DNA from: Pseudoxanthomonas sp.
GTDB taxonomy: Bacteria > Pseudomonadota > Gammaproteobacteria > Xanthomonadales > Xanthomonadaceae
Assembly: GCA_047607085.1 (NCBI GenBank)
Contig: JASGDT010000045.1
Span: forward strand, 34,142 to 98,141
Direction: 5' to 3'
DNA length: 64,000 bases
Below, in pieces: positions 54,071-56,405 of the stretch; positions within the stretch are counted from its first letter, which is position 1; each line of letters begins with the position of its first letter. The position numbers were made by a program, and so were the translations under genes. Under the pieces are notes generated by a model. The model ran no database searches. It was not told where the DNA came from and saw only the letters and a program-made list of their open reading frames with translations.

Positions 54071-54772
54071 ATGTCCGACTGCCTGATCGCCCCGTCCATC
54101 CTCTCCGCCGACTTCGCCCGCCTGGGCGAGGAAGTGGACAACGTGCTGGCCGCCGGCGCGGACTGGGTGCATTTCGACGTGATGGACAACCATTACGTGC
54201 CAAACCTGACCATCGGCCCGATGGTGTGCAGCGCGCTGCGCAAGCATGGCGTGAGCGCACCGATCGACGTGCACCTGATGGTGGCGCCGGTGGACCGCAT
54301 CGTCGGCGACTTTGCCGAGGCCGGCGCCAGCCTCATCAGCTTTCACCCCGAAGCCAGCGCGCACGTCCACCGCACCGTGCAACTGATCAAGTCGCATGGC
54401 TGCAAGGCGGGCCTGGTGCTGAACCCGGCCACGCCGGTCGATGTATTGGACTGGGTGCTGGAAGAACTGGATCTGGTCCTGCTGATGAGCGTGAACCCCG
54501 GCTTCGGCGGCCAGGCGTTCATTCCGTCGGCGCTGGACAAGTTGCGCGTGGTGCGCAGGAAGATCGACGCCATCGGCAAGCCGATCCATCTGGAAATCGA
54601 CGGTGGCGTGAAAACCGACAACATCGCGGAGATAGCCATTGCCGGCGCGGATGCCTTCGTCGCCGGCTCGGCGATCTTCCGCGAGCCGCGCACGCGCGAA
54701 GCCTACGCGGCCACGATTGCGCAGATGCGTGCGGAAGTCGCCGCTGCAAGGCGGATCGTCGCGCGCGCTTGA
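54071..54772 (+). CDS. rpe: Ribulose-phosphate 3-epimerase
   Basis: [44 protein letters not shown]. Confidence 0.98.
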
Positions 54773-54817
54773 GGCACAGGCTCGCGCAACCCCCGCCGGG
54801 CGGGTTAAAGTAGCGCG

Positions 54818-54964
54818 GTGAACCCACAGGCGAACCCCCGCGAATTTCCTTCCGCACGCCGGTCCTGGCGATGGTGGCCCGTTGCCGTCGCCTGCCGCGT
54901 CCACGCCTCCCGGAAGGAAACTCCCCTTGATTTCGCAAGCACAGTTCCAGCAGTTCGCTGCTGA
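54818..54964 (+). CDS. Putative Trp-rich leader peptide (TrpL-like), overlapping trpE start out of frame
   Basis: GTG-started 48-codon ORF with S-W-R-W-W at 54863-54877; TAAAGT -10 box 6 nt upstream; anti-SD inside. Confidence 0.7.
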   Translation: MNPQANPREFPSARRSWRWWPVAVACRVHASRKETPLDFASTVPAVRC

Positions 54965-56405
54965 AGGCATCTACAACCGCATTCCCGTCGTCCGCGAAGT
55001 GCTGTCCGACCTGGACACGCCGCTGTCGGTCTATCTGAAACTGGCCGATGGCCCATACACCTGCCTGTTCGAGTCGGTGGAGGGCGGCGAACGCTTCGGT
55101 CGCTACTCGATCATCGGCCTGCCGGCGCGGCGCGTGTTCCGTTTTCGCGGGCACGTGCTGGAAACGCTGGAATACGGCGAAGTCATCGAAACCCGCGAGG
55201 TCGCCGACCCGCTGGCCGAAGTCGAACGCCTGCGCACGCAATACGCGGTGCCGCAGCTCGACGGCCTGCCGGGTTTCAGCGGCGGGCTGGTCGGCTGGTT
55301 CGGTTTCGAGTGCATCGAATACATCGAGCCGCGACTGGCGCGCACCGACATTCCCGACGAACTCGGCACGCCTGACATCCTGCTGATGCTGGCCGAGGAA
55401 GTGGCGGTGTTCGACAACCTCAAGGGCCGCCTGTACCTGATCGTGCATGCAAACCCGGCCGAACCGCAGGCGTGGGCGAAGGCCAGCCGCCGCCTCGACG
55501 AACTGGCGCACCGCATCCAGCAGGCCGGCGTCGGCTACCCGCGCGCGCAGGTGTCCGATGCGCTGGACGAAACCGATTTCCGTTCGTCCTTCACCCGCGA
55601 GCAGTACCACGACGTGGTGCGCAAGGCGCAGGAATACGTGCGCGCCGGCGACATTTTCCAGGTGGTGCCCTCGCAACGCCTGCGCGTGCCGTTCCGCGCG
55701 CGGCCGATCGACGTGTATCGCGCCTTGCGTGCGCTCAACCCGTCGCCGTACATGTATTTCATCGACACCGGCGGTACCCAGGTGGTCGGTTCGTCGCCGG
55801 AAATCCTCGCCCGCCTGCGTGATGGAGAAGTCACTGTTCGCCCCATCGCCGGCACCCGCCGCCGCGGCCACACCGAAGCGGAAGACAAGGCGCTGGAAGC
55901 CGAACTATTGGCCGATCCGAAGGAACGCGCCGAACACGTGATGCTGATCGACCTGGGCCGCAACGACGTGGGCCGCGTGGCCGAAGCCGGCAGCGTATGC
56001 GTGGCGGAGTCCTTCGTGATCGAACGCTACAGCCACGTCATGCATATCGTCAGCGAAGTCACCGGCAAGCTGAAACCGGGCCTGGGCTACATGGACGTGC
56101 TGCGCGCCACCTTCCCCGCCGGCACCGTCAGCGGCGCGCCGAAGATCCGCGCGCTGGAAGTGATCCGCGAACTGGAACCGGTCAAGCGCAACGTCTATTC
56201 CGGCGCGGTCGGCTACCTCGGCTGGCACGGCGACGCCGACACCGCCATCGCCATCCGCACCGCCGTCATCCAGGATGGTCACCTCTACGTGCAAGCCGGC
56301 GGCGGCGTGGTCTATGACTCCGACCCGGATATGGAGTGGAAGGAAACGATGAACAAGGGCCGCGCGCTGTTCCGCGCGGTGGCGGAAGCGGCGAAGGGGT
56401 TGTGA
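54927..56405 (+). CDS. trpE: Anthranilate synthase component I
   Basis: LFESVEGGERFGRYS, LNPSPYM, GSSPE, RPIAGT, KERAEH.ML.DLGRND, FPAGT.SGAPK; TTG start with AAGGA SD. Confidence 0.97.
   Translation: MISQAQFQQFAAEGIYNRIPVVREVLSDLDTPLSVYLKLADGPYTCLFESVEGGERFGRYSIIGLPARRVFRFRGHVLETLEYGEVIETREVADPLAEVERLRTQYAVPQLDGLPGFSGGLVGWFGFECIEYIEPRLARTDIPDELGTPDILLMLAEEVAVFDNLKGRLYLIVHANPAEPQAWAKASRRLDELAHRIQQAGVGYPRAQVSDALDETDFRSSFTREQYHDVVRKAQEYVRAGDIFQVVPSQRLRVPFRARPIDVYRALRALNPSPYMYFIDTGGTQVVGSSPEILARLRDGEVTVRPIAGTRRRGHTEAEDKALEAELLADPKERAEHVMLIDLGRNDVGRVAEAGSVCVAESFVIERYSHVMHIVSEVTGKLKPGLGYMDVLRATFPAGTVSGAPKIRALEVIRELEPVKRNVYSGAVGYLGWHGDADTAIAIRTAVIQDGHLYVQAGGGVVYDSDPDMEWKETMNKGRALFRAVAEAAKGL

Follow-up and report, generated by a model that had tools for sequence, protein, structure and literature searches.

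The trpE gene of Pseudoxanthomonas sp., which encodes anthranilate synthase component I, is preceded and overlapped by an unannotated open reading frame (ORF) that is almost certainly a tryptophan-sensing leader. This leader probably switches trpE translation by unmasking the trpE Shine-Dalgarno (SD) sequence when a ribosome stalls on its Trp codons. The locus lies in a stretch of 64,000 nucleotides (GenBank assembly GCA_047607085.1, contig JASGDT010000045.1, positions 34,142 to 98,141 of the forward strand), referred to as the window, whose numbering is used throughout. From the DNA and its comparison across the family we infer where transcription starts, that ribosomes stall, in which direction and how strongly trpE responds, and at which level it is controlled.

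A leader ORF with clustered Trp codons overlaps trpE

The leader ORF has 48 codons, starts with GTG, lacks an SD, and encodes VNPQANPREFPSARRSWRWWPVAVACRVHASRKETPLDFASTVPAVRC, beginning with VNPQANPREFPSARRSWRWWPVA and ending in RC. Its regulatory codons, TGG CGA TGG TGG (W-R-W-W), bring together three Trp codons (54866-68, 54872-74 and 54875-77) at 49 nt upstream of the trpE start, and the locus thus has a Trp-rich ORF ahead of a trp gene. A box resembling a -10 element, TAAAGT, is followed by six nucleotides (AGCGCG) and then by the GTG. Both features had been proposed in a first-pass annotation of the window, which described a GTG ORF with three Trp codons in four positions, placed 6 nt after a TAAAGT box and without SD; the coordinates and translation of the ORF are reproduced here, as is the arrangement of the box.

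The placement of the box implies that the 5' end of the transcript would lie at or beside the start codon, giving a leaderless mRNA. In one relative (L029), the promoter scanner calls a full promoter, TTGCCA-16-TAAAGT, which ends 7 nt upstream of the GTG. In Xanthomonas campestris pv. vesicatoria, leaderless messages are reported to make up 14% of the mRNAs (PMC3300014). The leader peptide has no match in Pfam or NCBIfam, and a search of 5.8 billion clusters returned no called protein that resembles it.

A short G+C hairpin, CCCGC-CGG-GCGGG (54792-54804), is seen between the rpe stop and the -10 box, at the place expected for a -35 element, and may be a weak rpe terminator or an insulator. In transcripts reading through from upstream, the leader GTG would be internal and without SD, and such transcripts would presumably stay locked in the OFF state.

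The leader is conserved in more than half of the family genomes compared

We retrieved trpE orthologues from 57 genomes of the Xanthomonas/Lysobacter family, nearly all of different genera, and read the upstream DNA directly. The motif TGGCGATGG, encoding W-R-W and followed by W or sometimes R or P, occurs in 32/57 genomes and is nucleotide-invariant. All 32 leader-bearing genomes have an in-frame ATG or GTG located 6-9 nt 3' of a TANNNT box, without SD. The first Trp codon (W1) is found 30-60 nt from the leader start, mostly at 45 or 48 nt, and the leaders are 42-58 codons long. The Trp-codon cluster, the reading frame, the box-to-start spacing and the pairing of the SD described below are therefore all conserved among relatives, as was to be expected if the first-pass annotation had read the rpe-trpE spacer correctly.

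A covariance model built from 27 leaders was run against 301 genomes sampled across the order. It gave a single match per genome in 31 of them, all belonging to the Xanthomonas/Lysobacter family, and no match in about 259 genomes of other families of the order. All 32 leaders from the locus analysis are located upstream of trpE. Thermomonas (L071) carries the element, and the trpE upstream regions of Rhodanobacter and Frateuria have none. The synteny of rpe and trpE is not kept in relatives, where the upstream genes vary among loci. In the Pseudoxanthomonas genome itself, a scan for further leaderless W-rich ORFs returned one false positive only, inside a coding frame that we take to be the end of leuA.

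The conservation could also be read as that of a small protein that functions in its own right, or of an RNA or protein-binding site whose role has nothing to do with translating the ORF. The nucleotide invariance of TGGCGATGG, which includes a rare CGA codon, would fit such a site, and the Sinorhizobium trpL peptide is reported to have a trans function (PMC7298713). However, the peptide is poorly conserved outside W-R-W, the sequence of its C-terminal half follows from the SD and from codons of trpE, and no protein family, called homologue or Rfam family corresponds to it. The constraints on start codon and frame indicate that translation itself is what matters. We consider this explanation extremely unlikely, and a functional small protein was rejected on the poor peptide conservation together with the frame and start constraints.

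In one genome (L168, G215:C2:181500-189500, minus strand, 1530-1258 and 6030-5917), the module is present twice. Upstream of trpE, it has just one Trp codon (RRWR). The second copy (DARWWWPS) precedes trpG-trpD and has the anti-SD GTTCCT, the SD AGGAAC and a GTG, with the -1 frame kept. An ORF of 53 codons begins at this GTG and overlaps the trpG start (Pfam GATase) through its TGATGA; the ORF after trpG is trpD as read by eye. This arrangement suggests that the switch was duplicated and that its effect is passed on by translational coupling.

The leader sequence is predicted to sequester the trpE SD

Within the leader ORF, the anti-SD tract TTTCCTTCCG is the exact reverse complement of CGGAAGGAAA, so that the two can form a perfect 10-bp duplex (P1) covering the trpE SD (Table 1). 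Over the Trp codons, a further helix (P3), which includes one G.U pair, joins GGCGATGG(T) at 54867-75 to (G)CCGTCGCC at 54884-92. The 10-nt complementarity had been pointed out earlier at the same coordinates, and a pairing suggested between the Trp-codon segment and 54885-54892 corresponds to P3. RNAfold predicts a single hairpin of three nested helices (P1/P2/P3) at -45.3 kcal/mol (z = -1.9), and when the 5' part was shuffled 500 times by mononucleotide, an equally good helix over the SD came up in about 0.2% of cases.

The Arg codon between the first two Trp codons (54869-54871) is CGA in 32/32 leaders, and its A can pair with U 54888 in P3. CGA is rare in high-GC genomes. The host genome has 66% G+C, and slow decoding of this codon might add to the pause.

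Across the 32 leaders, the purine run of the SD pairs with a segment 5' of the Trp codons with a mean probability of 0.83, compared to 0.42 in dinucleotide-preserving shuffles of this segment, and the pairing exceeds that of the genome's own shuffles in 31/32 cases (Wilcoxon p = 9e-10). When partners are swapped between genomes within narrow windows, the own anti-SD/SD pairs have a mean energy of -15.2 kcal/mol versus -12.6 kcal/mol for the permuted ones, with 0/20000 permutations as good; with wide windows, RNAduplex gives a weak difference between own and cross pairs, with noisy shuffles. The arms vary by lineage yet fit their own partner, as in CTTCCG/CGGAAG, GCATTTCC/GGAAATGC, GGCGTCTTTC/GAAGGACGCC and CTCCTT/AAGGAG. 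The nested P1/P2/P3 arrangement is the minimum free energy (MFE) structure in about 30/32 leaders and the RNAalifold consensus within one clade. Substitutions in P3 are one-sided G.U/G-C or U.G/U-A switches that keep the pairing. In these folding models, leader-ORF sequence is thus predicted to sequester the trpE SD.

Table 1. Coordinates of the trpE leader, its pairing segments and the adjacent genes in the window.
Feature	Position	Strand	Remarks
rpe (ribulose-phosphate 3-epimerase)	54071..54772	+	Pfam Ribul_P_3_epim, E = 1e-87; upstream neighbour, context only
-10-like box TAAAGT	54806..54811	+	6 nt 5' of leader GTG; TANNNT 6-9 nt before start in 32/32 leader genomes
Leader ORF	54818..54964	+	GTG, 48 codons, no SD; TGA at 54962-64 inside trpE, -1 frame
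Anti-SD TTTCCTTCCG, 5' arm of outer helix P1	54845..54854	+	Inside leader ORF
P2 5' arm (ACGC.GGU)	54856..54863	+	Pairs with 54894-54900; MFE fold; nested helix in most relatives; one-clade RNAalifold consensus
Regulatory codons TGG CGA TGG TGG (WRWW)	54866..54877	+	54867-54875 doubles as P3 5' arm; TGGCGATGG invariant in 32 genomes
P3 3' arm (GCCGUCGCC)	54884..54892	+	MFE fold, RNAalifold consensus
P2 3' arm (GCCGCGU)	54894..54900	+	MFE fold
trpE SD region CGGAAGGAAA, 3' arm of P1	54911..54920	+	Perfect complement of anti-SD
trpE (anthranilate synthase component I)	54927..56405	+	Pfam Anth_synt_I_N + Chorismate_bind; TTG start
trpE codons 12-13, GCT GAA	54960..54965	+	Create leader TGA (54962-64) in -1 frame

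The leader frame and its stop codon inside trpE appear to be under selection

TrpE has 492 residues, and its TTG start codon sits 8 nt 3' of the AGGA core of the SD; the orthologues across the family are 70-88% identical, with an identical start context. The leader ORF runs across this TTG one base out of register and ends 35 nt into trpE, which specifies as -1 the other frame in which the leader had been said to cross the trpE start. The distance between W1 and the trpE start is 58, 61, 64, 70, 79 or 91 nt and is always 1 mod 3 (32/32 genomes), so that the leader is in the -1 frame in every case and the insertions and deletions in the spacer are all multiples of three.

In 26 of the 28 alignable leader-bearing genomes, the leader stop is made from the rare Ala codon GCT at one trpE position. 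GCT-GAA or GCT-GAC provides a TGA, and in TrpE variants with Asn, GCT-AAC provides a TAA. Leader-less genomes with the identical Ala-Ala-Glu-Gly residues use GCC and have no stop at that position; the two alignable leaders ending elsewhere are also without a GCT-made stop. The stop built on GCT, the switch between TGA and TAA and the use of GCC in leader-less genomes together indicate selection on the point of leader termination. With the box-to-start spacing found in 32/32 genomes and the frame-preserving indels, this selected stop provides indirect but strong signs that the leader is translated.

The choice of frame can be rationalized from its alternatives. Frame 0 would yield a constitutive leader-TrpE fusion, and the +1 frame would end at an NUGA overlapping most trpE starts and would couple leader translation to trpE. 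The -1 frame would avoid both fusion and coupling, and the built-in stop would limit out-of-frame translation. ATGA overlaps are known to act by coupling, and longer overlaps do not (PMC13285730).

Since the frame and the stop inside trpE are clearly selected, they could also speak for control mainly by ribosome traffic and not by RNA structure, in which leader ribosomes of Trp-replete cells, moving in the -1 frame, would occlude the trpE SD and start codon, and upstream stalling would clear them. In a variant, termination 35 nt into trpE would feed re-initiation and set the basal level of TrpE. A parallel exists in Sinorhizobium, where upstream ORFs overlapping the main ORF by more than 13 nt act by occlusion of the ribosome-binding site (RBS), ATGA overlaps being coupled (PMC13285730). 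However, initiation on leaderless mRNAs is as a rule too rare for an RBS to be constantly covered. Moreover, L017 keeps the Trp codons, the anti-SD and the SD with a leader that ends directly behind WRWWP, short of the RBS, and the conserved, lineage-specific complementarity to the SD is left unexplained by traffic alone. Even taken jointly with the re-initiation variant, this account appears very improbable.

A model for unmasking of the SD by stalled ribosomes

In the mechanism that we propose, transcription would start at or beside GTG 54818, and with such a 5' end 70S ribosomes would translate the 48-codon leader without an SD. In the free mRNA, the nested P1, P2 and P3 would lock the trpE SD in a long hairpin (OFF). 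When charged tRNA-Trp is ample, a ribosome would pass the Trp codons, cross the trpE RBS in the -1 frame and terminate within trpE, and the hairpin would re-form behind it. When tRNA-Trp is scarce, the ribosome would pause at W-R-W-W and sit on the 5' arms of P2 and P3 and on part of the anti-SD. P1 would then have to close a loop of about 60 nt containing the ribosome, and the SD would open far more easily, allowing 30S loading and TrpE synthesis. Any loss of trpE mRNA in the OFF state would be secondary, through Rho polarity or decay of untranslated RNA.

We modelled the footprint of the stalled ribosome as -15 to +16 around the P site, with the Trp codon in question in the A site. The mean cost of opening the RBS (-15 to +12) falls from 14.5 kcal/mol in the free mRNA to 9.6, 10.5 and 11.7 kcal/mol with the ribosome masking W1, W2 and W3, respectively, and for W1 it is below that of the free mRNA in 30/32 leaders. 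In a scan of ribosome positions, the RBS opens with the A site anywhere between about -30 and +6 of W1, and the effect is zero from +15, which places the Trp codons at the 3' edge of the opening window. The anti-SD ends 9-25 nt (median 15) upstream of W1, so that a single stalled ribosome covers just part of it. In the models, unmasking would come mainly from the loss of P2 and P3 and from the ribosome-filled loop of P1, to which partial coverage of the anti-SD would add. The first-pass annotation had a stalled ribosome covering the anti-SD and thereby freeing the RBS. The modelled coverage is partial at W1, where the footprint takes in about 45% of the anti-SD, and about 3% at W2 or W3; the opening cost drops at all three.

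This loss of coverage beyond W1 is one of several observations that weigh against the mechanism. The modelled gain in RBS opening is modest, at 3-5 kcal/mol. The optimum for unmasking is at -24 relative to W1, directly on the anti-SD, W1 being a secondary optimum. In equilibrium folds, a single ribosome at W2 or W3 can leave P1 in place, and in L029 so can one at W1. At the start of the element, the promoter scan gives no call in the window itself and the -35 is poor; GTG, with which the window leader begins, is a weaker leaderless start than AUG. On the side of RNA structure, RNAalifold applied to a MAFFT alignment of 27 leaders recovers P3 alone, with no double-sided changes (0/8 pairs), and double-sided covariation is also sparse in a single-clade alignment (2/24 pairs). 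A fixed-column covariation scan of 19 leaders of equal length did not recover P1 and P2, because the register of the anti-SD slides between lineages. Compensatory changes in the strict sense, as envisaged in the first-pass annotation, are thus sparse. One leader-bearing genome, L035, shows no SD sequestration. Finally, in the window and its clade, a UUGAU(UU) at the trpE start lies 0-3 nt 3' of the long hairpin; it is not conserved in the other clade.

Part of this geometry would be accounted for if two ribosomes on the leaderless mRNA acted together in the switch and the leader were physically interlocked with trpE, a tentative extension that we regard as rather unlikely. In equilibrium folds, P1 is gone when a second ribosome is queued about 30 nt behind the first. 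Speculatively, the 5' segment of 45-48 nt would just fit a second ribosome behind one stalled at W-R-W-W, and the trailing ribosome would occupy the anti-SD, matching the modelled optimum, in which the A site is located 21-30 nt upstream of W1. It would then be the collision (disome), more than the stalled ribosome as such, that brings about unmasking. Selection could have favoured the -1 frame and the GCT stop so that ribosomes of replete cells neither fuse nor couple (through NUGA) to TrpE and end early. The module could also be portable, as the G215 duplicate appears to drive trpG-trpD via its 53-codon relay ORF.

The locus lacks a recognizable terminator

No terminator-like site was found by scanning positions 54500-55200, and the terminator scans of relatives were also negative. 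As the loop limit of the scanner made it miss an obvious terminator in L078, one of the Alcaligenaceae, we relied on a census of T-runs and on direct reading of the Alcaligenaceae sequences. The census detected no run of at least four T after any hairpin in the 32 leaders. Scans and census thus agree with the earlier remark that neither a terminator nor a U-tract precedes trpE. Searching positions 54600-55100 against Rfam with cmscan (E up to 10) gave chance-level matches to unrelated families only. Riboswitch or T-box control was rejected, as no Rfam family matched, and so was a classical terminator-based attenuator (Trp_leader, RF00513), given that no terminator, U-tract or Rfam match was found.

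The trpE genes of Burkholderiales have Trp leaders as well. In the Alcaligenaceae L078 and L095 (Pusillimonas and Castellaniella), the region 130-210 nt before trpE contains a YWRWW stretch followed by a hairpin and TTTTT, a classical arrangement. At the same distance from trpE, the Comamonadaceae L092, L098 and L107 (Delftia, Ramlibacter and Variovorax) have leaders of the type MF(I/V)H followed by AWPWR, 8-9 nt after a TACACT-like box and with no evident U-tract; these W-P-W leaders are apparently leaderless.

These data bear on the possibility that the leader senses Trp with premature transcription termination as its output, SD masking being secondary. Termination could be Rho-dependent, on a C-rich untranslated stretch or in early trpE, or weakly intrinsic at the P1-P3 hairpin followed by UUGAUUU. 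The stretch from P3 to the SD is indeed C-rich and G-poor, and the hairpin of the window ends 3 nt 5' of UUGAUUU (5 T in 7 nt), so that a weak termination component is possible in the clade of the window. Polarity accompanies translational attenuation in the mycobacterial case (bioRxiv 10.1101/834739), and the Alcaligenaceae relatives have true terminators. However, the U-tract is not conserved, the other clade ending in CCGCGUGAC, and scanning for terminators gave no site. With a ribosome stalled at the Trp codons, the C-rich stretch would be exposed and not hidden, so Rho alone would give a response of the wrong sign. The conserved feature is complementarity to the SD itself, and the G215 duplicate keeps an SD, a start codon and an ORF reaching trpG, none of which a terminator device would need. 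Control by termination is, in our judgment, clearly improbable, and the observations agree better with translational control by SD unmasking.

Other Trp leaders and leader-less genomes

A different Trp leader, MRSAKSNSAQWWRFP*, is found in the same genome at C45:98183-98230, about 42-89 nt past the 3' end of the window and about 260 nt upstream of trpG. It has a TACAAT box at about window position 63998-64005 and, unlike the trpE leader, an SD (GGTGGA); its stop codon lies within a 7-bp hairpin (CGCTTCC/GGAAGCG). The W-W-R-F-x-stop ending and the hairpin are also present in G010 (MTRNIPFNVVHWWRFS) and G060 (MISAAMSSFGKWWRFL). As this leader differs from that of trpE, the family seems to sense Trp via two unrelated leaders.

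In about 25 of the 57 genomes, which are without the trpE leader, a motif GGCATACT, mostly in the form CTGGCATACTG and in a few cases one base off, is located 30-50 nt before trpE, and the N-terminus of TrpE differs. The genomes with GGCATACT are L014, L016, L020, L021, L023, L026, L028, L031, L032, L041, L043-L045, L047-L053 and L056. In L011 (G009, a 2.8-Mb, low-GC genome in a single contig), TTCATGATGATGTTTACCCGTTGTCGTTGTCC is found 120 nt before trpE where a leader has TGGCGATGGTGGCCCGTTGCCGTCGTCC. Neither Trp codons nor a start codon remain in it, trpE has GCC and not GCT at the leader-stop site, and the covariance model gives no match. This stretch looks like a decayed leader.

Discussion

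The closest counterpart of the trpE leader is the mycobacterial leaderless polycysteine short ORF Ms5788A, for which translational control with downstream polarity is proven (Canestrari et al., bioRxiv 10.1101/834739). Like Ms5788A, the trpE leader is a predicted leaderless sensory short ORF (5' RUG) that has no terminator and whose sequence would form a very stable duplex with the SD of the gene that follows. Stalling at end-product codons frees the SD in Ms5788A and, as we propose, would do so at trpE. The trpE leader differs in sensing Trp and not Cys and in its gamma-proteobacterial host. In Ms5788A the Cys codons pair with the SD, whereas the trpE leader has a separate anti-SD tract, 9-25 nt upstream of Trp codons that themselves pair in P3. 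Nor does the trpE leader stop before the gene, as it crosses the RBS in a fixed -1 frame to reach a selected stop inside trpE.

With trpL of E. coli (RF00513) and of Sinorhizobium, which are classical ribosome-mediated transcription attenuators, the leader shares tandem Trp codons before trpE, located in the 5' arm of a hairpin (segment 1:2), and, in our model, the logic by which stalling means ON. Unlike these, it has no 3:4 terminator or U-tract, no Rfam match and no SD, it is 42-58 codons long versus about 14, and its output helix sequesters the SD. The actinobacterial LEU element before leuA likewise has a predicted leader peptide, a base stem in which its mRNA pairs with the leuA SD, and a proposed translational action (Seliverstov et al. 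2005, PMC1262725). There, however, it is the regulatory Leu codons that pair with the SD, a pseudoknot was proposed, and the prediction concerns a different phylum and a different amino acid (PMC1262725).

In ermC and cat, as proposed here, a ribosome arrested on the leader ORF remodels hairpins and exposes a downstream SD (bioRxiv 10.1101/834739); arrest in those systems is caused by drug and nascent peptide, whereas a hungry codon would cause it here. Their helices lie side by side (1:2, 3:4) and are not nested, and their leader has its own SD. Leaders of Deinococcus deserti, including that of trpEGD, are translated from a 5'-terminal AUG or GUG, or with the transcription start at -1, and precede amino-acid operons (PMC4007540). 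They were interpreted as transcription attenuators, and neither SD sequestering nor overlap with the regulated gene was described for them (PMC4007540). The element reported here is not described in Rfam, Pfam, NCBIfam, the protein database or the searchable literature, a coverage that leaves aside older surveys of trp regulation in which Xanthomonadales may be mentioned.

Textbooks use Trp attenuation to illustrate control by ribosomes, and in proteobacteria it is known to act on transcription. In many genera of one gamma-proteobacterial family, it appears to have been remodelled into a translational switch that is leaderless and does without a terminator. Judging from the conserved DNA features, the sensor ORF of this switch is interlocked with the gene that it would regulate, by a fixed frame and by a stop codon written into a trpE codon. 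As a variant of known leader-peptide control and not a wholly new principle, this should surprise specialists only moderately. If the proposed mechanism is true, leaderless translational attenuation, so far proven for cysteine in mycobacteria, would extend to Gram-negative bacteria and to tryptophan. It would also provide a clean system for determining how far from the stall site a ribosome or a queue of ribosomes remodels an mRNA. For the family itself, it would account for a conserved, unannotated element in well-studied plant-associated and clinical genera, and it would flag a constraint on the first codons of trpE that annotation and codon-usage analyses would otherwise misread.

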